Assembly (NCBI GenBank): GCA_000091205.1
Contig: AP006501.2
Reading direction: 5' to 3' (one strand)
From: Cyanidioschyzon merolae
Lineage: Eukaryota
DNA length: 64,000 bases
The translations under genes and the position numbers were made by a program. Shown here in pieces: positions 2,783-43,853 of this stretch. Below the pieces are notes generated by a model. That model had not been told where the DNA came from. It saw only the letters and a program-made list of their open reading frames with translations, and made no database searches. Numbering within the stretch: the first letter of the stretch is position 1; every line of letters begins with the position of its first letter.

Positions 2783-5700
2783 TTAGACGGAACGCCCAAA
2801 CCAGTGACGACACCGACGCTGGAGCACTTGCAGCGCGTGCTCGTTCGTTGCACCCTCAGCCTCCGCAGCGATGATCAGGAGACGTTCGGCCAGATCAAGA
2901 ACGGCTTCACCGCAGCTCTCTCCGACTTGTGGCAAGTTGTGGCCAGTCAGGGGCCACGGACAGGCGTCTACCAACGCCGCAGAGCCTGTCCAAGCAACGT
3001 CCGGCGAATCAAGCATCGAACCTGCATCCTGGAGGAGATCATTCACGAGCACAGCGTCCGTGTAGAGCTCCCAGACGAGTTGCAAATCCACCGGCCGAAC
3101 GAGTTGCGTTGCGGTAACCGGCTGGATCAGTTCCTGTGCAGCAGCTGCGGGGCATGCGACACCAGCAAAGCCGTTCGCAAAAGCGAAAAGGTTCCGCTCT
3201 ACAATCAGGGTCAGACATTCCGCATCCAACGCATTGTGACGTTGCATCCGCCGCGACAAAGTGCGTTCCAGCGCCAGCATGGTATCGTAACGGAGGGTGC
3301 ATTCGAGTAACCGCACATAGAGCGCAAAACATCGAAACTGCCAGTACGCAAAGCAGTGGTTATCGTAGAGCAACGGTGCATGCGGCAACTGCTCCGGTGC
3401 TACCAGATACCGGTGGTTCCACATCAACCAAAAATAGCCGTGCCGCGAAGCGCTCGACGCATCCACACGAAACAACGGCTCCAGGGCAGTGATCGCTCGC
3501 GCAGCGTCCTGATAACCACAAAAGACGCCCAAGGCGTACAGGTAGGCACTGCGATACGACGGCAGCTCAGCAAGTTGCGTCAGCACAGACCCAAGCTCAT
3601 CGTTCGATCCATTCGACCTCGTCGACCGCGTCGTCGTCGTTCCAGGATGTGCGCTCTTCGAACTCGGGATCCAACCGAGCGCTTGGTAGAGCGCATTCGC
3701 CAGCACTGCGAGTCGGTACTCGAGCCACGGTGAGTACTGCAACTGGGCCTGGCCGTGCAGTTGCTGAGAAAGTCGCGGCAAAGCGTGTTCATAGCGCGCA
3801 AGTCGTTCGGCGATACGCTCGACACTGCTTGCGTACGACACGGGGGGCGCGGCTTCGCCAACCTCCCGTAACCATTGCCAGTAATCGAGCAGAAGCGCTA
3901 CTTCTGACTCCGCTGCTGGTGCGTCTTCCGCATCCGGGGTATCGTCTTTCCCGTGCGCTTGTTCCCGCAATGTGCACAGCAGGTTGGGCATGGAAGCACG
4001 CGCGGATTCAACTGCGCGCTTTGTATCCGGCGCAAGTGTATCCCAAGCAGCAGCCGGGATATGTATCGGAAGTAAGAGATAGGCACAGTAGAGTGCCTCC
4101 CAGTGAGCAGCAGTATGGACAGCGTGAGCGTTTGGTGTACGTTTTGCGCCCGTGGCGTGTCTGCATGAAACGGAAGCGGCTGCTTCAGGAGCCGACGCGT
4201 GTCCAGCGGTACCGCTGTGGCTCGTCATTATGATTACTGCATCCGGGGCGTGTTTGTTGCCACCAGACGCGATCGTCTGAACGCCCACAGCGAACCGATG
4301 TGCTGTGAGCAGCCACTCCACGTACCTGTGAAGACGAAAGCGGTTCGCGTTGCCAATAAGTTCCGCTGTTTCCAGTGAAAACTGTGCAGCATGACGCATA
4401 CAGGTCGCCAGTGCCAGTGTTAACTCGGAATCATCGAGTCGCGGACAGAGTGCGCGTCTGTCCTCGAGGTTTGATACTTCCGAGTTGCATGCGAGCTGCT
4501 GCTCGGTACGCTCAATCGTACCTTTGCCGGGATGATCAGCAACGATGCCAACAGCCGCGGTAGCAGCCTCAGAAGACGGAGCATCTATCGCAGAGGCAGA
4601 GGTATCTCGTGAAACAGCTTCCGGATCGACAGCCTCGACCGCTGCTACTCCTGCTTCGGATGCATTGCCCGAGCCGGTTGCTTTCCTTTGCGTTGCTGCC
4701 GCGGGAGCAGAAGCCGCTGTGCCCATTTCTGTAGCTGGCGTCGGGGCTGCGGCTGTCTCCGATGCTGTTTCCGTTGACGACTTGGCTGCACCGGGCGACT
4801 CGTGCCGTGTCGCCCGAAAATACGGGCTAATTCGTGGGGCTGGGTTGTCGGCCTCAGGGGACAACAGCCCCTGTAGGCGCTTCCGGCCAACACATCGTTC
4901 TTGCTGCGGAGCATCCTGCTTCAAAGCTGCCGATCCAATGAAGAAAGGAAGCAGCAACTCAATGAGTGTCTGAAGCGCGTCTAGCAGCTCGGTTGGTAGC
5001 AGTCGAGCCCGTCGCTCTGGTTCAGCCACTCTCTTGTACTCCAGGTCCAGGTACTCCATCTGCAGCCGGAAATGATACAGAAGCAGATCCCGATAACAGG
5101 GCAACAGATAGCGCTGCTCGATACCGCTTGCTGCTTGGATCAATTTCCCAGTCCATTGCCATAGCGTGCGAATACGGGGTCGTGAGCGACTCGCGAGCAC
5201 GTCGTCAAGTTCGGACTGACCGAGGGTCAGCGCCGGACAGAGCGCCTCCGGTGGAAGCACCATCTGCTCTGGACGCAGCGCTCTAGCCAAGGTCCATGCA
5301 CTGCAACTCGCTGCCACTGGTGGACCAGATTTCAGTCCGATCGCTGAGCAGTCTAGGCCATAAAGCACATGCAGGCATTGAATGCGCTCCCAGTCGAGAC
5401 GCGAAAACCAAGAAGGATCCCATTCCGGACTACACAGCGAACATCCAAGAAACCAACGCGCTCCTTGCTCTGCAGAGAGCCGCTCCCACAGCATTCCCGC
5501 ATAGAGCTGGTAAAGGAGGCTACAAGCCTGCCGCATTCGTTCGGAGGCTCTTCGTTCCATGGACAAGGCCGTCCCACGCTGTAGCCGCAGCGCCAAGCCG
5601 TGCAGAAGCTGATGCAGAAACGCACCGGCGGAGCAGCGAACAGCTTCATCCGAGTCTGAGAAAGCGTGCGTTCGGATGAAACGCTCTCGCCCAACAACAA

Positions 5701-8700: not shown

Positions 8701-9991
8701 TTTCGCGTTCATCCCGTATGAACACATTGGCGGTGAGCAGCGGCTCTGCTGTATCCATTGCAAGACGCTTGTGTACCAATTGATCCACTTGATCGACTAC
8801 ATCGAAAACCAGTGCTCCGTCGTCATCCATTGGTATGATAGACAACACCGACGACTGCGACGATTCAGTTGCCTTCTCGCCCTGTGATTGTCGACGCCTC
8901 GTTCCTGCTGCCTCGCTTTCCAGCGTTTCATGCCGGCGTTTTCGTCGCCACGCCGCACTGCTCGCATGCGCTAGACAAGTAACTAGTCGTCGGTGCAGCT
9001 GTCTAAAAAGAATATTCCAGGCTGGCAGCGCCTTCTCGCTCTGACGCAGCAGTGCACGCGTCTGGCGCAGGGCGAAACAACACGCGCCTCGATACCCTGC
9101 AGCTTCAGCAGTAGCTGCGGCCTTCAGCCACAACAGCACGGTTTTCGGTTGGTAGTGCGTTGCCTTCGCGTACGCTTCGAAGGCTGCTGCGGGTTCACCG
9201 ATCCGTTCGTATACTTGTCCCAGGCTCCAGGCGCTCAGGTAACCTAGCCGCTTGATCCACGGGGCATCTCCCCGCTGCGGTCGGGAACTTGCCGACTCCA
9301 ACTTTTGTTGCTCAGCGAGCAGTCGCAAGACTCGTTCAAAACCGCTCGCTGCCTCGCTGAAACGTCCGTCTGCGAAAGCCTCGGCAGCTTGCGAGTATAG
9401 CCCTCGTAGTTCCGGCTCTAGCGGGAGTTTGGACGCAGGTTGATCACGTGTTACTTTGCTGGTTGCTTTCTCAGTTGATTCAATAGCAGATGCTGGCGCA
9501 AACCCCAGCATCTTCACACCCTGAGCCTTGTCAAGTCCAGTGAAGAGTGCGCGGGAACAACACGGCGTCGGTTTTTTTAATGGTGCGCACGAGCTATCAA
9601 CGTTTCGCTTTTTTTCGTTCTTCCGTGGACTCGGTTCAGATGAAAACGGAACCCTGAAGAGCGCGCTCGATTCGTTCATGCCGTCTTTCTTCCCCGGGAT
9701 TTTGGTACCTGTAAAGACTTGATATTCAATGAGCAGCATAGGAAGGTTTGCGGACTCATAGATTGGACTTGGATTCTCGGGCGTGTTTTCAGTTTGGCTG
9801 TTTCGACTTGCCGCCGCTGGGACATGAACGGTTCGCATCATCACGATGATTTGCGACGACCTCGAGCAACAGTTCGCAAAATACCCGAGCTTGTTATCGA
9901 TTCCATACATGGAAACGCCACTGTTCTCGCTTCGCTCTCCATAATATCCTCGAACCTGGTACGCCTCACCTGCTGGATCTTCAATCACCAA
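2783..9991 (-). CDS. Giant 2402-aa protein, low-complexity (Ala/Ser/Gln-rich) with N-terminal TPR-like repeats. It may be an HIR3/CABIN1-like scaffold, but identity is unresolved.
   Basis: One uninterrupted 7.2-kb ORF. TPR-like segment 'WSLGQVYERIGEPAAAFEAYAKATHYQPKTVLLWLKAAATAEAAG'. A polyQ run is encoded by (CTG)n at 8163-8185. The first ~118 codons lie inside the duplicated segment 9636-10958. Confidence 0.55.
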   Translation of the reverse strand: MVIEDPAGEAYQVRGYYGERSENSGVSMYGIDNKLGYFANCCSRSSQIIVMMRTVHVPAAASRNSQTENTPENPSPIYESANLPMLLIEYQVFTGTKIPGKKDGMNESSALFRVPFSSEPSPRKNEKKRNVDSSCAPLKKPTPCCSRALFTGLDKAQGVKMLGFAPASAIESTEKATSKVTRDQPASKLPLEPELRGLYSQAAEAFADGRFSEAASGFERVLRLLAEQQKLESASSRPQRGDAPWIKRLGYLSAWSLGQVYERIGEPAAAFEAYAKATHYQPKTVLLWLKAAATAEAAGYRGACCFALRQTRALLRQSEKALPAWNILFRQLHRRLVTCLAHASSAAWRRKRRHETLESEAAGTRRRQSQGEKATESSQSSVLSIIPMDDDGALVFDVVDQVDQLVHKRLAMDTAEPLLTANVFIRDERETAASFSAKGAHGHVTDARRSPLSSVGAAALPSSGVGDDAASFEQVAGRVATVMRTTTESSSFVQEGVSERVDSGMLRAGACVPAEAQESAPGLTSKKAIVTKLPNKLRASGASESPREGSEAAERQPVEHKHSKRTACESTRGTTSDPVTSLTASTRGRAASATAAVTVNEAMQQQQQQQRGICSTCQGGGVESDPQVVAVATVPPARSSRSGETCSEPNRAGVSTAESESPARRTRRSLRYETEASLRSSSVPRSMIIAGISAGEIPGGAGANGAAPASRLLPSNDQDAASATATPEAAAVLEQLRCQLHDALRDYDATEQQNPASSSQAAQVIESVQETPTARVANATIIDAVRSVGAPFQFHESLLPLTTLVNRILGEALDRMMTIPVRMRTTLARKLCRLYHLWISWHPNGTGSFVLGTPASSAIPQEERAHWWLVWMWRSLALLEVAFWAGDWSLVDDVLTRTRACFDGYMREGLLPSSTIRMLLLIRYMYLHALNLLRQKHWNAAMDALKRALALWEDVQRLQRDHTTVSEAHFVDSAGKRCTSGRLQRVSVSPQEPPTSQQSACAEREALQASSGYNECTIAASMEAEYQTEPSKANESTAAGVSVSQISVPRHAAGQFVADEVHPKDTADDTAHALQNDAATERFGRASGKYPARTETAIQGSVSLGCRNTVAPVTGTTATHALVFEDTSPLCEDMSVTESDAPVERLLRAWRLRRRASASTALLELPEASGNASQLASAEACRAQERCRSVSASTAAENGPEATSACQVLCSWMAGLHPDQLLEHAALPEETSLHLGKIDLLRCLQYAAFEQLWKSLGASEDTFQTEMLDSEAMLMRLLSFLDLPIETVQVRLRQLLSRYAGGAAVVAAQELQRVTLRVTAATASASAAPTARSPDSSPRLEAQAQRSREPSLSRWRKLAALAQSLRRELDALGKATLVVPAQLRHKLYQMLGVSLPRILDLLWDVAPSESIIEQNLHDQLLVEWAAVFGLFVVGRERFIRTHAFSDSDEAVRCSAGAFLHQLLHGLALRLQRGTALSMERRASERMRQACSLLYQLYAGMLWERLSAEQGARWFLGCSLCSPEWDPSWFSRLDWERIQCLHVLYGLDCSAIGLKSGPPVAASCSAWTLARALRPEQMVLPPEALCPALTLGQSELDDVLASRSRPRIRTLWQWTGKLIQAASGIEQRYLLPCYRDLLLYHFRLQMEYLDLEYKRVAEPERRARLLPTELLDALQTLIELLLPFFIGSAALKQDAPQQERCVGRKRLQGLLSPEADNPAPRISPYFRATRHESPGAAKSSTETASETAAAPTPATEMGTAASAPAAATQRKATGSGNASEAGVAAVEAVDPEAVSRDTSASAIDAPSSEAATAAVGIVADHPGKGTIERTEQQLACNSEVSNLEDRRALCPRLDDSELTLALATCMRHAAQFSLETAELIGNANRFRLHRYVEWLLTAHRFAVGVQTIASGGNKHAPDAVIIMTSHSGTAGHASAPEAAASVSCRHATGAKRTPNAHAVHTAAHWEALYCAYLLLPIHIPAAAWDTLAPDTKRAVESARASMPNLLCTLREQAHGKDDTPDAEDAPAAESEVALLLDYWQWLREVGEAAPPVSYASSVERIAERLARYEHALPRLSQQLHGQAQLQYSPWLEYRLAVLANALYQALGWIPSSKSAHPGTTTTRSTRSNGSNDELGSVLTQLAELPSYRSAYLYALGVFCGYQDAARAITALEPLFRVDASSASRHGYFWLMWNHRYLVAPEQLPHAPLLYDNHCFAYWQFRCFALYVRLLECTLRYDTMLALERTLSRRMQRHNALDAECLTLIVERNLFAFANGFAGVACPAAAAQELIQPVTATQLVRPVDLQLVWELYTDAVLVNDLLQDAGSMLDSPDVAWTGSAALVDACPWPLTGHNLPQVGESCGEAVLDLAERLLIIAAEAEGATNEHALQVLQRRCRHWFGRSV

Positions 9992-10958
9992 ACATAAGCG
10001 TGGGCATCGGGGAAGCTATCCAAACCGCTGGCTGGACGGAGAATCGTAGGCGGCTTCGCCACTTTTGTAAGCGGCTTTCACAAGCTGGTGCCTAAAGTTT
10101 ACTGACCCTGTCATGCCACATACTCGATTCTGTTCGAAACACGAATCCTCGTCCGGATATGCCAGCCGACACAATGGAACTCGACAGCAGCCGGATGAGG
10201 GTCACGACGCTTGCTGCCTGAGGCTCCCGACTCTAGTGTGTTCACGGCCAGGGGTCTTGGACTCGGACTCCAGGCATCGAGGCGGTCGTTTCCAATGGAC
10301 TTGTTGTGGTCGCCTTGCACGACGCGCAGGGAGTGCGGACGGATCGACGTTTCTCTACTTGTTCTGTAGGCTGGATTTTCCGTTCGGTCATTGCTTCACC
10401 AAGGGCAATATCGAGTTCGACTTGCTGCGTACCGAGTGGCGCAACGTGCGCTTGCACCAGCATCGAACAGCGTACGCACCGAGGAGATCGCCCAGAAGAA
10501 GCCCGTGGTGGTTCGGTATGACAACGGGCACGGAAACGGAGAAGAGCATCTGTGGAAGCCGCCTGTCGCGGTTAGGGGCATGGAGCGAGCGGCGAAGCAA
10601 GCCCTCACGGTCCATAGAGTGTACGTTATTGGCAAAGGTCTAGAGGTCATACGTGCACACCAGACCGCAAACAAGAGTGACCGCTTGAAAGAGCGCACCG
10701 GGTCTGTATGCAGAGAAGATGGGCATGGCGAACGAAGCGTGGATCGCGACTTGTACCTGTGCCTGATATGGGTCGATGAGAGCTGGAAACTGCGGGACCG
10801 GCACTTCAAACGCTGCCAACGATGTCCATCGCCTGCTGGCAACGGAGCTGGAGTGGCAGGAGTGTCCGGTGTACGCAGGTCCGCAGGAAAGCGACGGGGT
10901 ACGGAAGCGGCTCAAGAAAAGGTCCAAAACCGCAGGTTTCGTTGATCGTACCAAGATA
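9636..10958. repeat. Segmental duplication copy 1 (1.3 kb). It is a near-identical direct repeat of 19796-21118.
   Basis: Both copies start with 'tcagatgaaaacggaaccctgaagagcgcgctcgattcg' and run colinearly at about 98-99% identity for ~1320 bp, offset by 10160 bp. ORFs 10113-10643 and 20273-20803 are almost identical. Confidence 0.9.
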
Positions 10959-13749
10959 CCAAAAATATAGGGAGGGCGTCCGAATGGTCAGTCCTTGGTA
11001 TTTCAGACGGACATGTTAGCAGAGACTTTGAGCGCGGTTGAAAGACGCGGGCACTGCAATGGATCGCTTTCAAGACGAGCTGATGTGCTGCTGGGAAGCT
11101 GACAACGCTGGGTCTCGGCGAACAGCAAGCATCCAGGACTGTTCGTCTGGTAGGTAGACTCAGTGGTGACGAAAATTGGAGCACCATGCTGTCGCATATA
11201 TTGCCCAAGAAGATCGCTTTCTTTGTCTAGATACATCGCTGAGGCCTCGCGTACGATCTGCAGCTCCATACTTTTCCAGTGCCAGTCTCGAAGCGAAGAT
11301 GCCGCCGCTTGGCTCTTAGCCCCTGATCTTCTTTCATCGGATCTACTCAGTGTTTCAGCAAAATGCCCACACTGAGTATTCAACGATGATCTCGATAGGT
11401 CGCTCAAAAAAAGGCCGATGGACTGTATGGGAGCATGATAACTTTCCGGATGGTGATCGAGGCCTTGGAGTTGCGACGCGTAAAGTGCTATGACGCCTCG
11501 TTGCCGTTGGAATCACACCAAAGCAAGCGTCTCGGTTGACGACGGCCTTGCCCTCGGACGTTCGGTCAGCATTCCGTACACGATTTCGTGCATCTGTTTC
11601 AGTTTCATGCTTTCCTTGTATAGAGGTCCCATGGTACGTCGATGCTTGTGGTGTGTGTCTGTCGTCCTGAACGTATGCATGGGAATCGTACAACATCGAA
11701 TTCTGCACTCATCGCATGCTTTCGTCGAAGCAGCAAGAGTGCGACCTCTGCGCGCTCCAGCAAGTCCAGCATCGTAGGCTACAATGACACGACAAGACTC
11801 GGAGGTCATTTCCTTTCCCCATGCAATGAAAAACTCGGCAGAGGCATGCTTCTCGTGTTCTGAAAACTGCAGCTCGTAGCTACTTGAGCACTGTCTCGTG
11901 TAGGCCAGCCATGTGTATCGTCCGCAAGAGCCACTCGGATGTTCATATCCTCACTGGAAGAACCGTAGAAAGCATCTTCCTCTGCCGGACCTGGTACTCA
12001 GGACGTCAAGATAGGTCCTGACGCCGCTATTCCGCTTGTTGGTATGCCTGCTGCCTACGATCCTGCCCAGCTCTCGATGATTACGATCCCTGGGAAAATC
12101 AGATCATATTGCTTGTTCTGCATCGAGCATCAGTGGCGAGGTCATACGAGGGTTTCATCGAAGCATTTCAGAAGCGACTGGACAGCTGGTAGCCCTGCGT
12201 TCACAGCTCCTTCAAAGCGTTGCTTGACGACGTGCGTCCAAGCAAAGGCGGGGTAAGCAAGCTATGCTGGGCGACGATGCGACGCGAGCTTTCGTTGCGT
12301 CCTGCATCCCACATGTTGCGAGATTCTGCGCGTTACTATGTTTCTCATACAGAAACCTGTACAACAGTTTCAGGTTGATATGAACGCTTCGACGGTTCCT
12401 GCTTCCTGTCCCTCGCCGTCCTCTTTTCGGGAAGTTTAGTCGCTTGGTTGTTCTACGGTATCCTCTGCTGTTCAAATTCTCAGCGGAACGGAATAGCTAT
12501 GGTCGCTGTCCTCTGTATCCGTTGTTTACCGCGGACTCAGACTTACCGGATGGATGATGGAACCAAAAATTGCCTTCTCTATGTACAAAACTCCTCTCCC
12601 GCAAGTGCCTCTTCGGCACCCTCTCGTTCATGAACCGAGAGGCGAAAGAGCAGTTTAGGGCTGGTCTAGGTGCTGAGCGCCGCGTCGAAAATCTTGGGTT
12701 TCACAGATGCGAAGGACTCGTCTACTGATCCGTGAGCTTAGAAGCGGCGTTTTACAACGTCGTAGGAGACGCCTTGGACAGGATTGAAGCCAAGAGAATA
12801 GGCTGCCGCGAAGAGCTGCTCGACACCAGTGCCAGCTGCGCATACCTTGACCGCCTTTGGGTGCTGAAAAGCGACATTTTCTCAGGGCGGAACCGAAGAA
12901 TGTAGGAAATGAAAACCCCGAAATGCTTCGAAGAAGCGTGAGGTGCTCATCGATCCCAAGCGTTTGACGACTCGTGGGTGACTAGACAAAAGCATCGTTG
13001 ATGGGCCTGATATCCTTGGAATGCTCAATCATCTCTTCTTTGCGATCAGATGATTTTTCTTCTCTTTAAGGGTCCATAAACAAGCCTACCATTTCTCCCG
13101 AATGAATTTTCATGGAGTGAGACGAACACTCGGTTCTCCTGGAATAAGCGTTCCCATTTCAATACGAAAAATCAATGGAGTGATTAGGATCGTAAGGCGG
13201 TCTGTCGTAAAAGCGCGCTTTTTCTATCTGTGCCCATCCGAGTATCTTCATCGCTGGTTGTATCAAATGTGAAGAAACGTCACAGCCTGTGGATTCGCCG
13301 GTAGTATATCATGGACAACGTATGGGGTGCAATGGATTGCTGAGGATAACGTCGTTTCCATACCATATGATATGTACTGTTATGGGTGCAAGGCGTCCAG
13401 CATAAGGTCGATGAGAAGGTGCGTTCGTGCACCTGCTGTCGGTAGAATGACTCACTTTTAGCTGTAAAGCCTTTTGTCGCCAGCTATCAGTCAATACATC
13501 AAGTGTATCCACGACGTTCTTCTAATCTACAGAATCAACTTCTTTTCTTGGACATTTGCGTGAAAAACAATTCACGTCAACAATAACGTGTTGATACAGG
13601 AGGTCAAGCGCTCGCTGCGCTGACGATCATGCCAGGTACTTGCCCAGCAACGCTGCTCAGAGTCGTAGCGTTGCACGTTCTGCAGCGACGGGACGCGGGT
13701 ATTGATTCCATGGACGACGTGATAGTCTGTTAACGCACTTGGGCATTTC

Positions 13750-19470: not shown

Positions 19471-20151
19471 TCATGGAATTGGCGAGTTTGACTCTACATC
19501 GAGTGTCGGTTGCTTCCGTGGTTGGTGGTAACCATCGTGCAACCCGAGGGTCCCAGGTAGCTTGATTGACCCTGCATCATTAGAAAGGCGACGAGAAGTA
19601 TGCCTTATGGGCGAGCGCCGCTTACCTACTGAGCCGAGTCGGCTACACTCTTCTCGACTCGCGATAAATTTTCCAACGATCGGTTGTTTGGTCGCAAGGA
19701 TTGGTATCAGTGACCAGGCACGTCGCGAGTGCGAATATCTCGTTGATGAAGGAATTGAAACTTGCGCGCTGTGTTGGGCACCAGCACGACACGCCTCAGA
19801 TGAAAACGGAACCCTGAAGAGCGCGCTCGATTCGTTCATGCCGTCTTTCTTCCCCGGGAGTTTGGTACCTGTAAAGACTCGATATTCAATAAGCAGCATT
19901 GGAAGGTTTGCGGACTCATAGATTGGACTTGGATTCTCGGGCGTGTTTTCAGTTTGGCTGTTTCGACTTGCTGCCGCTGGGACATGAACGGTTCGCATCA
20001 TCACGATGATTTGCGACGAGCTCGAGCAACAGTTCGCAAAATATCCGAGCTTATTATCGATTCCATACATGGAAACGCCACTGTTCTCGCTTCGCTCTCC
20101 ATAATATCCTCGAACCTGGTACGCCTCACCTGCTGGATCTTCAAGCACCAA
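19471..20151 (-). pseudogene. Partial duplicate of the 5' end of the giant gene. It is a chimeric 226-aa ORF: its first ~118 aa are ~97% identical to the N-terminus of ORF 2783-9991, then it reads into unique sequence.
   Basis: 'MVLEDPAGEAYQVRGYYGERSENSGVSMYGIDNKLGYFANCC...VPFSSE' matches the giant-ORF N-terminus. It diverges at the duplication boundary (19796). Confidence 0.45.
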
Positions 20152-21118
20152 ACATAAGCGTGGGCATCGGGGAAGCTATCCAAACCGCTGGCTGGACGGA
20201 GAATCGTAGGCGGCTTCGCCACTTTTGTAAGGGCGATCCACAAGCTGGTGCCTAAAGTTTACTGACCCTGTCATGCCACATACTCGATTCTGTTCGAAAC
20301 ACGAATCCTCGTCCGGATATGCCAGCCGACACAATGGAACTCGACAGCAGCCGGATGAGGGTCACGACGCTTGCTGCCTGAGGCTCCCGACTCTAGTGTG
20401 TTCACGGCCAGGGGTCTTGGACTCGGACTCCAGGCATCGAGGCGGTCGTTTCCAATGGACTTGTTGTGGTCGCCTTGCACGACGCGCAGGGAGTGCGGAC
20501 GGATCGACGTTTCTCTACTTGTTCTGTAGGCTGGATTTTCCGTTCGGTCATTGCTTCACCAAGGGCAATATCGCGTTCGACTTGCTGCGTACCGAGTGGC
20601 GCAACGTGCGCTTGCACCAGCATCGAACAGCGTACGCACCGCGGAGATCGCCCAGAAGAAGCCCGTGGTGGTTCGGCATGGCACCGGGCACGGAAACGGA
20701 GAAGAGCACCTGTGGAAGCCGCCTGTCGCGGTTAGGGGCATGGAGCGAGCGGCGAAGCAAGCCCTCACGGTCCATAGAGCGTACGTTATTGGCAAAGGTC
20801 TAGAGGTCATACGTGCACACCAGACCGCAAACAAGAGTGACCGCTTGAAAGAGCGCACCGGGTCTGTATGCAGAGAAGATGGGCATGGCGAACGAAGCGT
20901 GGATCGCGACTTGTACCTGTGCCTGATATGGGTCGATGAGAGCTGGAAACTGCGGGACCGGCACTTCAAACGCTGCCAACGATGTCCATCGCCTGCTGGC
21001 AACGGAGCTGGAGTGGCAGGAGTGTCCGGTGTACGCAGGTCCGCAGGAAAGCGACGGGGTACGGAAGCGGCTCAAGAAAAGGTCCAAAACCGCAGGTTTC
21101 GTTGACAGTACCAAGAGA
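19796..21118. repeat. Segmental duplication copy 2
   Basis: See copy 1. The few differences include 10414 a versus 20574 c, and 'tcgtaccaagatacc' versus 'cagtaccaagagatcc' at the distal end. Confidence 0.9.
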
Positions 21119-22013: not shown

Positions 22014-23510
22014 CTAGTGCTCGCACTCTCGGATCAGCGCAAGCACATCGTAGATGATCCGAGCAGTCATTCCCCAGACAATTTTCCCGCTGCTGAGCTC
22101 TCGTGGTAGACAAAACATCGGTGCGGGGGCGGCCTCGGTCGAGAACTGTTCTAAGGGCGCTTGACGTTGCCCCGTCTCTTCTGGGGAGTCTCGCGCTGTT
22201 GTACCAACGATCTCCGAGGTTGTGTTTGCGCCTGCATGACTGGCTTCATTCACGAGATCCGTTCCCAGGGTCGTGTCCTCCCAAGTACAGTTACCTGATT
22301 CGGAGCGGCACGCCTCGAGAACACCGCGCGGCACCACAAGCAGGCTTTGAACCTCAGCCCGGTTCAACGCGAGTTGGCTTGGATTGACACGATCGTCCAA
22401 GTATCCGATGAATGACAAAACTCTAAAATTAGATGAGCGCAGAAGCGGCCGATACTCATGAAACTTTCCCAGTATGCGTATAAAACTAGGATCAAGTCCG
22501 ATCTCCTCTTGAGTCTCTCGCAAGGCGGTTTCCAGAAGAGAGCAATCCCCAGCGCGTACTTTCCCGCCAGGGCAGGAGATTTCGCCCCGGTGGATCCGAA
22601 CGAGCTTCGATCTCTCTGTGAGCACGAAAGCAACTTGGACGCAGGAGTCAGTCTCAGCCGCCTCGGGCCCGCGACAGAGTAAGACGAGCACAGCGGCATT
22701 CGGGGCCGCCACCGAGGGATCGTGATCCACGCGCACCGTGCGCAACGGCATTGTTCGCAGCCGCTGTTCTATGCGGTTCAAGAGATCACTGGTCCTCCTC
22801 GATCGAACATGAACGTGGCGTGCCCACGGCAAAGCTCGCTGAAGAAACGGCACCATGCGGATTTGGGTCCGGGTTCGTCCCAACGAGGTCGTCGACGACG
22901 CCAGCATTGGTTTCGACGGCACCTGTGATGGCGTCATTGTCACTGGTAACGACCTCGAATCTGTAGAATTCTGAGCAAGCGAGCGCCCCGGCATCGATGT
23001 GTTCGAGTTGAAGGCACTTGACCACCAGTTCCGCTGTGCCACCTTCCACAGTGTCTCGACCCAGTCACGCTCAAGAATACGGTGCTGAACAAAACGCACC
23101 AAGTTAGTAGCAAAGCCTCGCCGCGGCTTCCGCGACGTGGTGCATTGCAAGCCTGTAGTTGTGCGCCTCGGGCGCTGCCGTTTCGGTGGCTGGGCTGCCT
23201 GCGAAGCCGGTGGACGTGCTGGTTCAGGAACGAGCCGACCACAGAGTGAAGCGCGGGAGGCGCAACCAAGCGTCCTGTGCTCGACGGCGTCGCAAGCCTT
23301 TCTCAGCTGTACCCATGTGAAACTTGAAACCTTCAACAATCCTAAACCAGTCAGCGGAATGAAAAGCGTTGACAACACTCTAGCCCTGGGCGACTGCGCC
23401 GACACGCTGCCAACTCGCACGGGTGGCGCAGTTCCAACCTCGACTCCGGTCGTCGCCGGTGCCACCCCAGAGCAGAGCATCCCGCTCCCTTGACGTACCA
23501 GCCTACCCAT
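22014..23510 (-). CDS. Nudix hydrolase, CoA pyrophosphatase-like (NUDT7/8/PCD1 type). The N-terminal ~230 aa are low-complexity, so the true start may be internal.
   Basis: Nudix box 'GGKVRAGDCSLLETALRETQEEIGL' (GX5EX7REUXEEXGU). It follows 'AAVLVLLCRG...VAFVLTERS', as in CoA pyrophosphatases. Confidence 0.7.
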   Translation of the reverse strand: MGRLVRQGSGMLCSGVAPATTGVEVGTAPPVRVGSVSAQSPRARVLSTLFIPLTGLGLLKVSSFTWVQLRKACDAVEHRTLGCASRASLCGRLVPEPARPPASQAAQPPKRQRPRRTTTGLQCTTSRKPRRGFATNLVRFVQHRILERDWVETLWKVAQRNWWSSAFNSNTSMPGRSLAQNSTDSRSLPVTMTPSQVPSKPMLASSTTSLGRTRTQIRMVPFLQRALPWARHVHVRSRRTSDLLNRIEQRLRTMPLRTVRVDHDPSVAAPNAAVLVLLCRGPEAAETDSCVQVAFVLTERSKLVRIHRGEISCPGGKVRAGDCSLLETALRETQEEIGLDPSFIRILGKFHEYRPLLRSSNFRVLSFIGYLDDRVNPSQLALNRAEVQSLLVVPRGVLEACRSESGNCTWEDTTLGTDLVNEASHAGANTTSEIVGTTARDSPEETGQRQAPLEQFSTEAAPAPMFCLPRELSSGKIVWGMTARIIYDVLALIRECEH

Positions 23511-23619: not shown

Positions 23620-24690
23620 CTAGCCTGTGTAAGATTGTCCAATATCGTCGAGGACGCTATTGCTAGATTTGAACCTAAAGATATATATACATGCCAACTC
23701 ACAGACGCCTCCGAGTTTCTTACAACAGGCTCCTGCTGTCCGCTTCAGCTTTTCCGTGTACACCTCGAGCTGGAGAGGGTGTCCAGCAATGTTCGCTCGC
23801 ATCACATCCATGGGTCTCGTCTCCAGCACCGCATATCGTCTGATATTCATGGCGGCGTTCAAGTTGCGGTTCACCATTTCCGTTCGTTTATAGTTTCCGA
23901 TGGGACTCATCAATGCGAGGATTCCGAGAACTCGCGCCCCCAGTGCCTTTTGCTGCTCTGTATGGTTCCCGCGCTTTTCTATCGCCGGAGCGCACCGCTG
24001 CCTTATCTCCATCTCGGCCTTCTGAAGTGTACATCCTGGTTCATCCCTCGGATTTTCTATTTCCTCAAATGACCCCGATTGTCTAAGACCTTTGGTGATG
24101 ACCTAGCCGGAGGATGAGGGACTTGCGGAAGAGAGACGACATGTGTCCCGGTGTCACCGTGTGCTGAACGCTTCGGCGATTCGTCCAGTGCAGCGATTGT
24201 TACGTTTCACAATAGAAAACACTCTTCCGATGGAGTTCATCTACGGAGTGCACGGAGGAAGAGCATGCAGCTCTACCCCGATGGCATCGGAAAAAGACCG
24301 AACGCAACGGGTGTGGTCAAATGCCACGTTGTCGAACAGAGCGACGTTGCGAGACGTCAGCGAAAACTCTCTAATGGCTGGACGAAATTGCTGGTGCTGT
24401 TATATGAGCCTTCTGTACGAGCGAAACTAAGGCCGCCAAGTATATCCACTTCAGCTGGAAGAGAGGATAATGTCGTCGTTATCTTCGAGTTCGATCCTGC
24501 ATGGAACGGGCTCTATCTCCGCGACTACCCATATACGCTCCGAACGTCTTGTACGAAAAAAGTTTCATCGATCGAAACAAACCGCTCGATGCCCTCTGCT
24601 TCGTACTGATCGCGAGGTTCCAGGAACCCTGTCGTTGCGATTTCTTGTGGAAGATAGCGGAGTGTGAACTAGAACTTTTTTCCACTGTGT
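23620..24690 (-). mobile_element. TnpB/Fanzor-like gene relic, copy B. RuvC-III Asp is replaced by Asn, and the upstream part is frameshifted.
   Basis: ORF 23620-24012 (-): 'EIRQRCAPAIEKRGNHTEQQKALGARVLGILALMSPIGNYKRTEMVNRNLNAAMNIRRYAVLETRP...GHPLQLEVYTEKLKRTAG'. It aligns residue by residue with copy A ('EMEKCQRSFEDIAKYGPMTGEQMETRANVRGLLALVSTVNGNEKRMEYVNRDFNAALNIRKCAV'). Minus-strand frames at 24479-24685 ('SMKLFSYKTFGAYMGSRG') match copy A 'ERLVVTYGAGRWMTQKG' and copy C 'SMRLSWDETVGAYMDIRG'. Confidence 0.5.
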
Positions 24691-25427
24691 TCTAACGTTT
24701 TTAGGACCACACGAGCAAGCTGTTGCGAAAAATCGACGCGTGTGGCGACTAGCAGCGTCGCTTTTTGCTTTTCGTAAGGTTATCAACGGGTCCGTTGCTA
24801 CCAGTTACCGCAAACACGCTTTGAGCACATCGGTTTTTGGCGCGATGTGCATCTACTTTCTTTCAGTGTCTCTCAACCATCTGACTATTGTGGTATGTCA
24901 TACCTGAAGGAGAAGTGCTGTCCTCATTGCACTGTTCATTAAAGAATATATATATCCTACAGGCAAATCTAATACGATGCATACTGTAAAATGCATTGCG
25001 ATTCCGACCTCCTGCACTGCATCGCACCGGCGGTGGAACGAAACCAAGCTGGATGACGCGAAGCAGGCAGGCAAGGCAAATCATAGATGACTGAATTGTC
25101 TCTTCATTCGCGAATCTCTAACAAACAGCTCGTTCCTCGAAACTCCAGTTCTACACTCTCGCTTTCCAGCACCGTCTGTAGCGATGAACTCTGTCGATAT
25201 GGATCGCTGAGCGTGCTCTGTTTGACTGTCTCGCACGCTGCGGCAGTGGACACGCTCTTAGCTTGACACCTGGTGCAGCAGATGCGACTGCTGTACCTGT
25301 GAAACGGAGCCCGGTCGCCACCGCGCACTAGTCGCCGGGCTGGTTTTCCTGAGATCTGCGTTTCTATTTCTTCCCAGCGACGCTATTTGGAGCGAAATAA
25401 CGCAAACTTTTATTATTAGAGGAGTAA

Positions 25428-26183
25428 TTGAACGATTTCGGAGCTGTTCAACGGGGGAACGGTGAGGAGTTAGCGTCGCGGTTGCACACGCCGGTCAGCT
25501 GCACTTTTTGCACGCGCAGCGTAAACCCCGTGTCGCCCGGTTCCCAGAGACGGTTTTGGACCGAACTTATGGCCGCAGACTCCACTGAATCCAGCGACTT
25601 TGCTGTCATACCCTTTGGATCCGAGTACTTGCATTTTTTTGCGGTGAAGACGCTGATCGACGGCTTGCTGAGCGAGCCTTACTCCACGTTCACCTACCGG
25701 TACTTTCTACGCCAATGGAGCGAACTGTGTTTCCTAGCGGTTCGGAAACTTCCGCATGCTGCATCGTGTACACCGCTCCGATCTGAGGATTTGTTCGGTT
25801 GCATCATTGGCAAGGCAGAGGTGCACAGAGACTCGCTCCGCGGATATATTGCAATGATTGCCGTCGACATGACGCATCGTCGACGCGGTCTAGGCACATT
25901 ACTCGTACAGCGAACGCTGCAAGCCATGCAAGAGCGAGGATGTGATGAGGTAGTCCTCGAAACTGAAGTAACGAATCACTCCGCGCTACGAATGTATGAG
26001 AAGCTAGGCTTCTTGCGCGACAAGCGTCTCGAACGGTACTACTTGAACGGATCGGATGCGTTTCGACTGCGCCGCCGCCTGGTGCCGCTGCCGATGCCCA
26101 ACATCGACTCACCAGCACCCCAGCTGCCATTGAATCAGAAAACGTCGGAACCCGAGAGAATCACCGAAAGCTACTCTGATTGA
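25428..26183 (+). CDS. NAA30: N-alpha-acetyltransferase 30 (NatC catalytic subunit, MAK3-like), GNAT fold
   Basis: 'GYIAMIAVDMTHRRRGLGTLLVQRTLQAMQERGCDEVVLETEVTNHSALRMYEKLGFLRDKRLERYYLNGSDAFRL' shows GNAT motifs A and B with the MAK3/NAA30-type Q/RxxGxG/A. Confidence 0.8.
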   Translation: MNDFGAVQRGNGEELASRLHTPVSCTFCTRSVNPVSPGSQRRFWTELMAADSTESSDFAVIPFGSEYLHFFAVKTLIDGLLSEPYSTFTYRYFLRQWSELCFLAVRKLPHAASCTPLRSEDLFGCIIGKAEVHRDSLRGYIAMIAVDMTHRRRGLGTLLVQRTLQAMQERGCDEVVLETEVTNHSALRMYEKLGFLRDKRLERYYLNGSDAFRLRRRLVPLPMPNIDSPAPQLPLNQKTSEPERITESYSD

Positions 26184-26505: not shown

Positions 26506-26810
26506 GTCATAGCGTTATCACCAACGCGATGCAGCCCACAAAGTTCTATTTGATGACATTTCACGTTGCGGAGTATATCTGCAGATGGCTTGTACGTGTG
26601 CGCATGTGCACATGTACATGCATCTACATTGGCATTACCGATTGTCATAGCGTTATTACCAACGCGATGCAACCTAGAAAGTTCTATTTGATGACATTTC
26701 ACGTTGCGGTGGATACCTGTGGATAGCTCATGCATGCATGCATGCATCATTGCATGTGTCCATGCGTGCACGCGCACGCATCTCCTTGGCGGCGGCGGCG
26801 GCGGCAATGA
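26506..26810. repeat. Composite repeat: an ~85-bp core present twice (26506-26590 and 26644-26728, period 138 bp), followed by (CATG)n and (GGC)6 microsatellites
   Basis: Direct read: 'gtcatagcgttatcaccaacgcgatgcagcccacaaagttctatttgatgacatttcacgttgcgg...' is repeated. Then 'catgcatgcatgcatgcat' and 'ggcggcggcggcggcggc'. Confidence 0.85.
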
Positions 26811-31277: not shown

Positions 31278-31769
31278 GAAGGTAAAGAAAGACTCAACGA
31301 GAAGGCGAACGAGTCAACACACTGCGAGCGGCAGCCAAGTACACTCGTCCCTGTCCGGAAATCCGCATTGCGCAGTGGAGGCAATGCATTCTGCGTCGCT
31401 GGCGCCTGTTATGGATCGTCCTCGGCGCTTGCGCTGTCCTTCATCCATCCAAGATTATAGTCTTTCAGCTCAATTGTGTTTCAATCCCGCTGCGGTTCGT
31501 AGCAGGAGATCGATATTATAATGCAATATACCGGCTAAATCGCAGACGAATTGCATGCAGGTTATATTCTTTTCTGAGTAGTTCAAGGAGATTTGGATTG
31601 CTCCTCCTGGCCAGTCATATCATAGGACTCTGATGGTTCAGGAACACTGAAAGAAACAAGAATATAGGCTCTGCATCAAAAACATGAATTCTCAAGGCGT
31701 GCTTGCGGTAAATGGTAGAAAACGGTCCGTCGATCAGCCTACGGAAAGCGAATAACGATAACAGTTGCT

Positions 31770-32905
31770 GACATGGGCGTTTCTGTTTCTCTGCCCTTGT
31801 TGGTGCGCTCCTGAAAACGCTGGGATCCAATCGCACATAAAGTCCTACCACACGAACAGCCATCATCCACCGAGTTCGCAACTACAGAGTTCCTGGAACG
31901 CAGCGATCGGTATGAATCACAGGAACGTCGGATTGTTTTCACAGTCGATGAGACTTTCTTGGGACGAAACGGTCGGAGCGTATATGGATATTCGAGGTGA
32001 AGGGAGCCCGCTGTATCCAGAATCGAACTCGAAGAGAACGAGGATATTACCGTCTGTTCTAGATGCAGAGGATTCCAGTCGCGGCCTCAGTTTCGCTCGT
32101 GGAGGAGGCTCATAAGACAGCATCCACTTTGTCGAATCATCGAAGACTTTCACCCTGACTCCTGGCGACTTCCTTCTATTGGACAACGTGGCATTTGACT
32201 ATTCGCTTTGCGTTCGGGCTCTTGCCTATTCTATCGGGTTTAGAGCTGCTTCTCATTCCTCGATACGCTCCGTGGCTGATTCAGATGAAAGTATCGTTTT
32301 CTATTGTGAAACCTAATGAGCGCTGCACCAAGCGGATTCCCAAAGCGTTCCGCACCCGGCGACACAAAGGCGCGTGTAGTCTTTCTTCCGTCGGTCCGTC
32401 TCCCGCCAGAAAGGTCCTGAAATAAGGGCATGAATAAGTGCGTCCATTTTCAAAAAAATCCAAGCGAAAGGCATGGACATGGAAGGCGAGGATCCTGGAG
32501 GGCAGTCATTGGTGGATGCCGGAAAAGAACAAAAAGACTCATCAGCTCTCTGACCATCGAGCAGAGAAGAGCATATGACAACGACGACGAAGAAGAAGAG
32601 GAGAGATGTGCAAGAAATGAGGTTTGCCCGTCGAGGCGACAATGAGACTGTAGTGACTCAGCGGGCATGAGTTCAAGGAATCCTCGCATTGATGAGTTCC
32701 ACCTCCGGCAATACACGCATGCCGTTCAGGAACCGAAACTTCAACGCCGCCATCAATACCAGACGATTTGTCGTACAAAAGACGAGAACCGAGAAGCTGA
32801 CACAAGCGAGCTTTTCGGGCAGCCTCTCAGGGTCGAGATGTACGGCGAGAAAGTGAAGTCGATAGCAGGCGGCCTTTCGCACAGGGCTGGGATGCCTTTG
32901 TGAGT
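31770..32905 (+). pseudogene. TnpB/Fanzor-like gene relic, copy C. It carries multiple frameshifts, and RuvC-III reads D->N.
   Basis: Frames pieced from ORFs 31765-32115, 32195-32425, 32430-32645 and 32667-32903: 'SMRLSWDETVGAYMDIRGEGSPLYPESNSKRTRI', 'VQGILALMSSTSGNTRMPFRNRNFNAAINTRRFVV', 'GQPLRVEMYGEKVKSIAGG'. These are colinear with copies A and B. Confidence 0.5.
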
Positions 32906-34980
32906 AGGTGTAAATATGTACGCTGTGGTGGTTGAGCATTTTTGTTTTCAACATCACGTGTAGAAGGCAGGCCTTGACAACGACTTCAAATTGATTTTTC
33001 CGATTTGAGAGTTTTGCTTTCCTGTCCTTCCTGGTCCTCTTCTCGGAGGAAGCTTTCTCTTCTCTGTCTGGTGGATTCGTTTTTTCTCCGTTACCTGGCA
33101 GGGTGGCATTGATGTGGTCGATAGTCAGTACGTCCATCGAACCGGGAAGAAGAGGCTTGCACGAACAGCCGGATCGGCACCATTCGCAGCTTTCTATACA
33201 TTGAACGTTCGTGATTGATGGAATGCGATGTTGCCCGACAACAGGACAGAAGAATTTGGGGGAGCGGAATCTTTGAAGAGTGCTTCAACCAACGATATAT
33301 TGATGTACGATCCCGTCCTTTGGGCGGTTTGTCAGCGACCACTCGATCGAATCACCACCAGGGCGAATGCTTACCTTATGCTCATTTCTTTTTTCTTTTC
33401 GAACACTGGTACATGGAGACTCCTCGAGCACCCATTTGCAGGAGTACCATTTCTCCCGAATCGGCTCTGATCGAGTGAGACAAACACATGCACTTTCTGT
33501 TGGCAGCGATCACGATTCAGGACAAAAACGACAGCAGGTGGTGTAGAATGTGCGACGATCACCCGCAGAAGCGTACTTGTACCTGTGTCCGCTCGTGTCT
33601 CTTCATAGCCAGTCGTTTGAGCGGTACAGAAACTTCACATACTGTGGCTACTTCCATAGTATTTCTCAAAAAACGGATGAAGTAGGAAGGGCTGATAAAG
33701 AGAGATTCATTGGGATGGAGTCTGGGAAGTGCTGCTATGGGTGCAGCACTTTCTGTATATGGGCGGGGTGAAGGGTGCCAGAGCCACTTGCTGAGCGTCG
33801 GATAACTGACTTGGACATGCAAGACCGTTTCACCGTATGCGACGAGCGACAGCGCCATGACATTCCTCGACTTTTAGCCAATCTGCAACATTCATTCGCT
33901 TTGCTCAATCTTCGCATGAAACACGGGCAAAACAGAAAAGGCTCGCTGGTGCAGGTATCCCAGAATTCACTGCTCTGAGTATAATGCCCTTTGACGGGTA
34001 GCAGAGCTTCTTTAGCACCGATCTTTCTGCCAGAATGAAGCGTGCAGTGAGAAAAAACTAGGGCCCACATCTCGTGCTCCTACCTGCGTATTTTTCACGC
34101 ACACAAGAACGAACAGCCTCTTAGCTCATTCTCAGTTTTCTATGCACCCAGCGCACGGACGCTTCTCGTTCTCGTATCTGAGAATGTTCGACGAATCATG
34201 ACGGGATGCGAAGTGTTTTACTAATTTATCAGTGTTTCGGCGACTCGGCTGCTGGCCAATAAGCTTCTGTCAACGTCCTAGATTGGTTGCTATTGAAGCC
34301 ATCCGAGGATAATTCCAAGCGGTGCAATGCAAGAGGGGGCACTCGAGCCGAATTCTCGCCTCAAAGAAAAAATTCTCGATTAGCTCGAATAGCCACGATT
34401 ATGCTTGAGTCTTGAGGCACGAGCTCTCATGCTGACCCATATCCTCCGTAAACTCAGGTGGAATGTATGCAGCGATTACACCAACCCACTCAAGAGCGAT
34501 CGGCAAGCTAGGGAATCGCCCCGAGTGCCGGGTGCACTCCTTTCGTGCGCTCAGCGACGCCGGATGACAAGCACTGCATAAGTCTTCCACGGAGCAAACG
34601 ATAAATAAAAGCTATCCACCGGATGTTCTCATCATCCTGTTGATTTTTGCGTGCGAACAGCAGCGTTCGACATGAGCCAGCACTCAACTGTCGAATACTG
34701 ATCCAGCACGACAGGTCAAGCATCGCGTCAAAACACCAGCCTACGAGAGCAAACGAGTTTTTCGCCACAGCGAACGGCATCCGTGGAGTCTTTGGCGTCT
34801 CATACCAGTGTCGACATCCTATCCACGTTTCCGATACGAATCATGGAAAGAGCACTCACCGGACTCGTGATGCATCGGCCGCGCGAATCGCTCCCCATGG
34901 AAAAATTGGTAATTGTTCCCGGGCTTGACGCTCCGCTGCTCTCCAATTGGAGCATTCTCCATAGCTAACGCATCGAACAC

Positions 34981-42830: not shown

Positions 42831-43232
42831 CTTGTTGTTGACCGGGAATTTCTCTGAAGCGCGGAGCTTCCGATGGCGATTGTGAATCCCTGTGCCGATC
42901 CATACTGCCGTACTTGTTGTTGACCGAGAATTTCTCTGAAGCGGGGAGCTTCCGATGGCGATTGTGAATCCCTGTCCCGATCCATACTGCCATACTTGTT
43001 GTTGACCGAGAATTTCTCTGAAGCGCGGAGCTTCCGATGGCGATTGTGAATCCCTGTCCCGATCCATACTGCCATACTTGTTGTTGACCGAGAATTTCTC
43101 TGAAGCGGGGAGCTTCCGATGGCGATTGTGAATCCCTGTCCCGATCCATACTGCCATACTTGTTGTTGACCGAGAATTTCTCTGAAGCGGGGAGCTTCCG
43201 ATGGCGATTGTGAATCCCTGTCCCGATCCATA
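42831..43232. repeat. Minisatellite: 82-bp unit in about 5 tandem copies
   Basis: 'cttgttgttgaccgagaatttctctgaagcg[c/g]ggagcttccgatggcgattgtgaatccctgtcccgatccatactgccata' recurs at 42831, 42913, 42995, 43077 and 43159. The unit length is not a multiple of 3, which explains the three overlapping minus-strand ORFs 42738-43279 with rotating repetitive peptides. Confidence 0.9.
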
Positions 43233-43853
43233 CGTCCGTTATGCGTCCACGCTCGGCGCATGCGATGACTCGTCGGCAAGAGGCCTTGTCAAGCTACATC
43301 GGGCACGTGAATCGATCCGTCGTTCGCCAAGACACCCAAACACTCCACCAGACCTATGAGCGAGGGTCAAGCACAGCGGACCTTCTCCGGACCCACTCGT
43401 GAACTTCAGGGCAATTGCCTTGCTTCGTTTTCGTACTCCTGGGGCGAGCGACTCGCATGCAGTCTATGTTTGATAGCGGGATCACCAACCCCTGCACATT
43501 AGGCGCGCACGACAAGCTCGGCTCTCGTTGGAACACACAAAATCACAATAATTTCTGGGGAGCAGTATGTCTGGCATCAGGTGAAACTCGTACCTAGAGC
43601 GGTGAATCATGGATGCGCTGCGGTATGCAGATACCAATCCCGGAATCGGGGATCTCTTGTCAGTGGCATCGGTCTGTTGATCGAAAAAAAAAACTGAACC
43701 TCCACGAAATCGAGTTCAACGCGGCGCCAAATCATTCAACGTCGTTTCTCTGCAACAGCACGCAACTACGGTACTGTTTCCAAGCAAGCCGGGGTCTGCT
43801 CTTGCCCCGCACTGCCGCCGCTGGAAAGAACTGCTTGTGTACCTGTTTCACCA

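Follow-up and report, generated by a model that had tools for sequence, protein, structure and literature searches.

The association of Fanzor1 genes with Mariner/Tc1 transposons is established (PMC3627910; Fanzor1c, Jiang et al. 2023, PMC10530073). For the Fanzor1 element of Cyanidioschyzon merolae, CMe-1A, which is represented by ∼150 degraded copies, each ∼80% identical to a 3,169-bp consensus encoding 734 amino acids (aa), the class was given as unknown and no mariner association was reported in this species (Bao & Jurka 2013, Mobile DNA 4:12, PMC3627910). Here we describe copy B, a ∼1.39-kb sequence related to CMe-1A that lies between the NUDIX and MAK3 genes of C. merolae 10D, in a 64-kb window (the whole stretch of DNA that was analyzed). 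Copy B contains a 130-aa open reading frame (ORF) in which a first-pass annotation had noted that the catalytic Asp of the RuvC-III motif is replaced by Asn, and which it had interpreted either as a domesticated or inactivated TnpB-like gene or as a simple pseudogene. Our analyses make it very probable that copy B is a fixed, non-functional and neutrally evolving relic of a composite mariner-plus-Fanzor1 cut-and-paste DNA transposon.

The closest described systems share some features with this locus and lack others. CMe-1A and copy B occur in the same genome, are homologous over the Fanzor1 C-terminal region and have the same tail after RuvC-III; both lack the C4 zinc-finger cysteines, and both are old, degraded and multi-copy, with no detectable terminal inverted repeats (TIRs). 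Copy B differs from CMe-1A in its identity of 70%, in the presence of a DDE_3 transposase pseudogene and in derived changes held in common with a second copy in the window, copy C; it is also without nt 1-782 (including the TE-N2_CMe part) and Fanzor codons 1-610, and has RN for RD. The PUl-1 element of Pythium ultimum resembles copy B in that a ∼300-aa DDE transposase is followed by a same-strand Fanzor1, and the transposases are homologous. However, PUl-1 is an intact element that has 24-bp TIRs and TA duplications, whereas copy B is reduced to a pseudogene whose ends cannot be recognised. In bacteria, the TldR proteins, nuclease-dead TnpB homologues, have reportedly been exapted as RNA-guided repressors, as Wiegand and colleagues are said to have described in 2024. 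TldR proteins retain the complete body that binds RNA and DNA, are under purifying selection and occupy conserved loci. Copy B is like TldR in that a RuvC catalytic residue has been lost in a TnpB-family sequence, and unlike it in being a 15% fragment that evolves neutrally.

Composite structure of copy B

Read along the minus strand, copy B consists of a 5′ terminal motif, a DDE_3 transposase pseudogene and a Fanzor1 5′ untranslated region (UTR)-like remnant fused to a Fanzor1 C-terminal fragment. Its features are as follows.

23680..25064 (−): whole relic copy B, ∼1.39 kb, ends approximate (limits taken from the stretch that aligns with copy C and a pair of metagenome paralogs)
25020..25064 (−): 5′ terminal motif in degenerate form; copy C reads TATAGTCTTTCAGCTCAATTGTGTTTCAA, and CMe-1A has the motif internally (consensus nt 783-817)
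24163..24954 (−): DDE_3 (IS630/Tc1/mariner-type) transposase pseudogene (tblastn with the intact transposase P0192; Pfam PF13358)
24479..24685 (−): 68-aa ORF, over the transposase pseudogene and not Fanzor (ORF in blast frame −1, DDE_3 homology in frame −3)
24045..24102 (−): deletion junction, where A-rich 5′ UTR-like GAGGAAATAGAAAATCCGAGG is joined straight to Fanzor codon ∼611 (our reading of alignments with the four-copy consensus and CMe-1A)
23702..24044 (−): Fanzor1 C-terminal fragment, codons ∼611-723 of 734, with the RuvC-III segment and conserved tail (blastn, tblastn, four-way alignment)
23620..24012 (−): flagged ORF, 130 aa, ATG start, containing MVNRNLNAAMNIRR / MVNRNLNAAMNIRRYAVLETRP around RuvC-III
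23863..23865 (−): AAC (Asn) at the RuvC-III catalytic Asp position, D672 (four-way alignment)

The Fanzor part was delimited by mapping the CMe-1 consensus DNA and protein (Bao & Jurka 2013, supplementary files 2 and 3, PMC3627910) onto the window. CMe-1A members are ∼80% identical to the consensus over its 3,169 bp; copy B matched it only over 347 bp, at 69.8% (blastn, window positions 24044-23702 with CMe-1A nt 2737-3083). In tblastn, copy B aligned with consensus aa 612-723 at 51% identity (E = 1.8e-24). The 130-aa ORF, which had been described as open through MVNRNLNAAMNIRRYAVLETRP and the conserved tail, is indeed present at 23620-24012 (−) and is Fanzor1-homologous by this match. Its Met corresponds to the internal residue M622 of Fanzor1 CMe-1, and its last ∼20 codons apparently extend beyond the point at which similarity within the family ends (∼23680, an approximate value only) into flanking DNA, so that its stop codon probably comes from the flank. 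A TTG-initiated ORF of 145 aa lies antisense to it.

Comparison of the CMe-1 family with a green-algal Fanzor1 profile by hhalign gave a probability of 97.5% (E = 8e-12) and paired VDEFRTS with IDEYKTS and NRDFNAAINIR with NRDVSAANVIR; CRe-1, a member of that profile, matches Pfam PF07282 at 8e-9. Copy B alone aligned with the profile over an 18-aa RuvC-III stretch only, with a probability of 21%. Pfam searches with the copy A fragment (see below) and the full CMe-1 consensus returned PF07282 at sub-threshold values only (E = 0.046 and 0.52, respectively), and when the CMe-1 family and consensus were searched against the PDB, neither sequence nor profile comparison yielded a Fanzor or TnpB structure. 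An AlphaFold2 model of the family member P0025, built on a shallow family alignment, had a mean pLDDT of 36.8 and was unusable. The CMe-1 consensus goes undetected by PF07282, yet the ratio of nonsynonymous to synonymous substitution rates (dN/dS) of the family (metagenome relatives P0001-P0120) is ∼0.24. The four (C4) zinc-finger cysteines of the published Fanzor/TnpB signature are missing even from the CMe-1 consensus (TSYTHHELGC ... RGLLALVSTT; TSYTHHELGC ... RGLLALVSTTSDG).

Only ∼15% of the Fanzor protein is retained in copy B. Codons 1-610 and the start codon are absent, and with them ∼85% of the nuclease: the deletion took out RuvC-I, the TS motif with the alternative RuvC-II Glu, WED/REC and the entire RNA- and DNA-binding body. 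Specifically, the RuvC-I motif of the CMe-1 consensus, VVGADPGNTN, has no counterpart in copy B, and VDEFRTS (consensus aa ∼600-607), which holds the [TS][TS] motif and the alternative RuvC-II Glu, falls within the deletion. An ATA triplet at 24058-24060 was considered as a mutated Fanzor start codon and dropped, as the four-copy consensus puts it in the A-rich 5′ UTR, with the start codon itself deleted.

The 915 bp upstream of the junction (24100-25015) matched copy C at 69% and had no significant similarity to CMe-1A, at the DNA or the protein level. P0192, an intact transposase of 303 aa, aligned to this part of copy B over aa 12-274 (24954-24163; tblastn E = 1.5e-28), in three pieces separated by 2 frameshifts and with 7 in-frame stops. 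A majority consensus of four copies opened a 171-aa frame, and its stitched translation matched Pfam PF13358 with E = 2.9e-16 (60.1 bits; cut-off 28.6), whereas the stitched translation of copy B itself scored 25.7 bits (E = 1.2e-5), below the cut-off. A database search with the transposase consensus returned DDE_3 (PF13358) proteins, intact ∼300-aa transposases among them. The Mariner transposase of PUl-1 is homologous to P0192 (27% identity over 298 aa, E = 1e-23) and to the family consensus (7e-11).

These data bear on the first-pass description of the region as a TnpB/Fanzor-like copy that is broken upstream. The description is borne out for the fragment at 23702-24044, but the sequence described as broken upstream belongs to a mariner-type transposase pseudogene. 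The frame at 24479-24685, which had been taken for homologous Fanzor sequence, is an out-of-frame ORF within the DDE_3 pseudogene region. Pfam searches of this 68-aa ORF and of the 130-aa ORF gave no meaningful match. The possibility that the upstream 915 bp are a highly diverged Fanzor N-terminus was also rejected, given the lack of CMe-1 similarity and the clear DDE_3 match.

Related copies and the recurring transposase–Fanzor order

Self-comparison of the window revealed three related pieces, copies A (1-692, +), B (∼23680-25064, −) and C (31453-32917, +). In addition to copy A, which is treated below, the related sequences are as follows.

31453..32917 (+): copy C, paralog of B, 69% nt identity (self-comparison, CMe-1 mapping, alignment)
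11462-13530 (−): relic D, a far more diverged composite; transposase pseudogene, then Fanzor1-like fragment
32961-33831 (−): relic E′; transposase pseudogene at 33831-33212 (E = 3e-18), then Fanzor N-terminus-like sequence at 33098-32961

Copy C has the same transposase pseudogene as copy B, at 31526-32311, and a Fanzor remnant in which codons ∼1-55 are fused to codons ∼633-729, with 2 stops and 1 frameshift. Its matches to the CMe-1A consensus lie at nt 786-817, 869-968 and 2842-3083, the first of these corresponding to 31456-31487 with 90.6% identity. When compared with the CMe-1 consensus and copy A, copies B and C have many derived characters and a 3-bp deletion in common. A metagenome scan with a 20-mer diagnostic for B and C added two paralogs, the first on L023 and the other on L029, L023 and L026, and all four copies are ∼70% identical pairwise. 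By these alignments copy B is assigned to a sister family of CMe-1A, of which copy C and the two metagenome paralogs are also members.

Copies B and C lie in opposite orientations, 5′ ends inward, on either side of the MAK3, MutL-like and guanylate kinase genes. A segmental inverted duplication as the source of this arrangement was rejected, since paralogs exist elsewhere and the deletion junctions differ. Each of the two copies fills most of a short intergenic/promoter region, and ∼175 bp separate the guanylate kinase ATG from the 5′ end of copy C.

The order of a transposase followed by a Fanzor sequence on the same strand occurs four times in the window, in B, C, relic D and relic E′. In relic D, the transposase pseudogene (13530-12648) matches P0192 with E = 1e-27 and the Fanzor1-like part (12097-11462) is 27% identical at the aa level to CMe-1 aa 464-662, with stops present. 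Together, relics B, C, D and E′ suggest that Tc1/mariner-type (DDE_3) transposons were formerly the carriers of the Fanzor1 lineage of C. merolae.

The same comparisons bear on the proposal that copy B is a plain 5′-truncated CMe-1A, its upstream 915 bp being unrelated flank or a separate nested insertion. The alignment of the Fanzor fragment to consensus nt 2737-3083 and the ∼150 degraded CMe-1A copies that have been reported (Bao & Jurka, PMC3627910) are in keeping with this proposal, which we nevertheless consider most improbable. A genuine CMe-1A copy in the same window, copy A, is 85% identical to the consensus (nt 2452-3143, 692 bp, 85.5%), as opposed to 70% for copy B, and the derived characters and 3-bp deletion common to B and C set them apart from CMe-1A. 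Moreover, a transposase and a Fanzor remnant stand in the same order in the four B/C-type paralogs and, at much greater divergence, in relics D and E′, and the CMe-1A consensus contains no DDE_3 transposase remnant. Because it lacks such a remnant and carries the 5′-end motif of B and C internally, at nt 783-817, CMe-1A is likely a transposase-deleted derivative of the B/C element type that has kept the old 5′ terminal motif. From such a derivation the abundant CMe-1A, to which no class was assigned in 2013, would gain both a classification and a likely origin.

Copy A, an ordinary CMe-1A member truncated by the start of the window, retains RD, and its conserved tail is interrupted by an in-frame TAG (528-530). 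A protein search with copy A returned 215 fragmentary metagenome ORFs with 55-90% identity, indicating a high-copy, decayed repeat. The dN/dS of copy A against the consensus, 0.24, fits the remark of Bao & Jurka that this old family long kept its coding capacity (PMC3627910).

Relic E′ lies tail-to-tail with copy C, and an ORF of 154 aa (32673-33137, −) spans the junction between them; metagenome annotations label this ORF "hypothetical protein". A weak DDE_3-like remnant was also observed at 56827-57477 (−), with 24% identity to P0192 aa 23-227 (E = 2e-7), where it overlaps a 172-aa ORF without a Pfam match. A copy of the short element TE-N2_CMe is present as well: 47573-48175 (+) corresponds to CMe-1A consensus nt 38-636 with 79% identity, and a second, weak match at 58406-58692 (−) is 58.6% identical to nt 4-282.

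Neutral evolution of copy B

The window ORFs that flank copy B are exact matches of annotated C. merolae 10D proteins.

22014-23510 (−): NUDIX, BAM83022
25569-26183 (+): MAK3 N-acetyltransferase, BAM83023
27016-28992 (+): MutL-like, BAM83024
29457-31277 (−): guanylate kinase, BAM83025

As these accessions are consecutive, no gene is annotated between NUDIX and MAK3, that is, at copy B. The exact product of the 130-aa ORF is absent from protein and gene collections that include the 10D annotation, and a search of 5.8 billion proteins with the copy B fragment recovered its own orthologs only.

Ten orthologous environmental haplotypes were obtained by way of the NUDIX protein and, together with 10D, gave 11 haplotypes. 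Their identity to the window is 98.7-99.1% over copy B and ∼99.3-99.6% over the 4.2-kb region, and each of them carries copy B at the same position. The first-pass annotation had suggested that a syntenic locus would speak for domestication and a polymorphic one for mobility. The locus is syntenic in 11/11 haplotypes, but at only ∼1% divergence this demonstrates fixation and not selection.

Variable sites per 100 bp numbered 3.56 in the copy B ORF, 2.68 in the upstream part of copy B and 1.9-3.7 in intergenic DNA, compared with 1.19 in the MAK3 coding sequence and 0.47 in that of NUDIX. The polymorphism density of the 130-aa ORF is thus 7.6 times that of NUDIX (Fisher p = 6e-6). The ORF contains 11 nonsynonymous and 3 synonymous variants, spread over codon positions as 4/6/4, which corresponds to a ratio of nonsynonymous to synonymous polymorphism (pN/pS) of 1.08. 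For NUDIX, with 1 nonsynonymous and 6 synonymous variants, pN/pS is 0.06, and for MAK3 it is 0.26; the contrast in nonsynonymous and synonymous variants between the 130-aa ORF and NUDIX is significant (Fisher p = 0.016). A premature stop, Q81*, is present in the ORF of 2 of the 11 haplotypes (L020 and L021), the remaining 9 being open.

Among copies, the dN/dS is 1.13 for B versus C and 0.39 for B versus the CMe-1 consensus, and mismatches between B and C in the 915-bp upstream part show no codon periodicity (20/21/22). When changes were assigned to branches, the shared B/C branch carried 13 synonymous and 9 nonsynonymous changes (omega ∼0.21), the B-only changes were 3 synonymous and 13 nonsynonymous (omega ∼1.3) and the C-only changes 7 synonymous and 20 nonsynonymous (omega ∼0.9). 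The contrast between shared and terminal branches (p = 0.006) indicates that the gene still worked in this lineage until roughly when the copies were deposited, and that it has been drifting since. A Ka/Ks of about 1, together with absent expression, had been named beforehand as the sign of a dead relic, and a ratio near 1 is what the pN/pS of copy B, the B versus C dN/dS and the B-specific omega show; the simple-pseudogene alternative of the first-pass annotation is therefore the one upheld by the neutral substitution pattern.

The length of the ORF does not set it apart either. In simulations, 24% of 1.5-kb sequences of the same composition contained ATG ORFs of 130 aa or more, and ∼15 are expected per 64 kb. 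The length is at chance level.

One alternative is that the host keeps the 130-aa ORF as a domesticated, nuclease-dead Fanzor-derived gene with a new, non-cutting function, as bacterial TldR arose from TnpB. A frame open in 9/11 haplotypes at a locus syntenic in all, the replaced catalytic Asp and a Fanzor fragment with fewer stops than its surroundings would all be expected of such a gene. We find this exceedingly unlikely. A pN/pS of 1.08, an even spread over codon positions, a segregating Q81* and polymorphism equal to or above that of intergenic DNA, together with the B versus C dN/dS, are at odds with a retained protein, and the 15% of the protein that is left lacks RuvC-I, RuvC-II, WED/REC and the nucleic-acid-binding part. 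In addition, the ORF is unannotated in 10D, has no Pfam domain, finds only its own orthologs among the 5.8 billion proteins and is of a length expected by chance. Copy B serves as a worked example that an open frame and a lost catalytic residue in a transposon fragment are not evidence of exaptation. At this base composition, chance alone would be expected to produce ORFs this long.

A role for the DNA rather than for a protein was also considered: copy B could be kept as a guide (omega) RNA for active CMe-1A Fanzors or as part of the NUDIX promoter (∼110-170 bp upstream of the start codon). Independent deletions in B and C-type copies spared the 5′ region as well as ∼350 bp at the 3′ end, a retention that would be predicted if the ends were needed in cis or encoded guide RNA (by inference from TnpB/Fanzor biology, PMC10530073). 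Moreover, the guide RNA normally overlaps its Fanzor gene in the 3′ part, and the 3′ end of copy B is ∼170 bp from the NUDIX ATG at 23510. We judge such a role very unlikely, as no part of the region is more polymorphic than 23620-24044 (3.3 variable sites per 100 bp) and the NUDIX spacer (3.7), and the 3′ region is just ∼70% identical to CMe-1A. Rfam and tRNA scans of the 64-kb window were empty, although Fanzor guide RNAs may simply not be in Rfam.

Several observations count against the interpretation of copy B as a neutrally evolving mariner-type relic. An inverted-repeat search found no TIRs in B and C, and no target-site duplications of the copy B element were found, so that both the element ends and the mariner classification depend on transposase homology. 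A TA precedes the 5′ motif in copy C and in the paralog on L029, but decay has gone too far for the ends to be delimited. The Fanzor fragment has 0 stops in 111 codons and the transposase part 7 in 261; ∼3 would be expected in the former (Poisson P ∼0.05). This scarcity is mildly unusual and post hoc, a weak indication because the segment was picked in the first-pass annotation for being open. Finally, the population test comprises 14 variants in haplotypes only ∼1% apart.

The RuvC-III substitution and the history of the element

The substitution at RuvC-III was confirmed. Codon 672 is GAC in the CMe-1 consensus and copy A and AAC in copies B and C, such that copy B reads R-N (CGC AAC) where the consensus and copy A read R-D (CGA GAC). 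The AAC codon at 23863-23865 is invariant across the 11 haplotypes. Among the other paralogs, the third has GAA at this position and in the fourth the codon is deleted. For function, the change is moot because the deletion covers ∼85% of the nuclease and with it the other catalytic motifs.

The deletion junctions differ between the copies (codon ∼611 in B; ∼55 to ∼633 in C), and the B/C ancestor therefore had a longer Fanzor gene, which may already have carried Asn at codon 672. The occurrence of AAC in both B and C despite their different deletions, along with an omega of ∼0.2 on the ancestral branch, raises a further idea: the change from Asp to Asn would predate the dispersal of B and C, and a RuvC-dead, mariner-borne Fanzor1 would have propagated under selection, with B as one of its fossils. 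We give this idea only a small chance. Were it correct, it would imply a nuclease-independent role, for example in RNA-guided binding.

For the relic itself, we infer the following order of events, and the mobility of the ancestor through its DDE transposase. The ancestor would have carried a Tc1/mariner-type (DDE_3) transposase gene followed by a same-strand Fanzor1 gene of a lineage sister to CMe-1A. It would have inserted between NUDIX and MAK3, and an internal deletion, before or after insertion, would have removed Fanzor codons 1-610, leaving the last ∼112 codons with the RuvC-III motif, in which RD had mutated to RN already or did so later. The transposase gene would then have gained its 2 frameshifts and 7 stops. 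The 130-codon ORF would be open in 10D only since no stop has struck it yet, as one has in other strains. It presumably yields no functional product, and the Asp-to-Asn change would be without consequence of its own.

Other repeats are present in the window. The segments 9628-10956 and 19788-21116 form a 1.33-kb direct duplication with 98% identity, 10.16 kb apart, and the duplicated segment contains two overlapping ORFs of 176 and 184 aa without a Pfam match. Self-comparison also revealed tandem or near-tandem repeats at 42831-43239 (offset 82 bp) and 58574-59332 (offset 188 bp), with ∼98% identity, and at 26506-26728 an 85-bp unit is repeated 138 bp apart with 88% identity, adjoining CA-rich sequence. 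In MAK3 (BAM83023, 204 aa), codon W50 (25716-25718) is changed from TGG to the stop TGA in two environmental haplotypes, L018 and L019, which also have a Leu-to-Phe change near this stop and for which gene callers give a 109-aa product.

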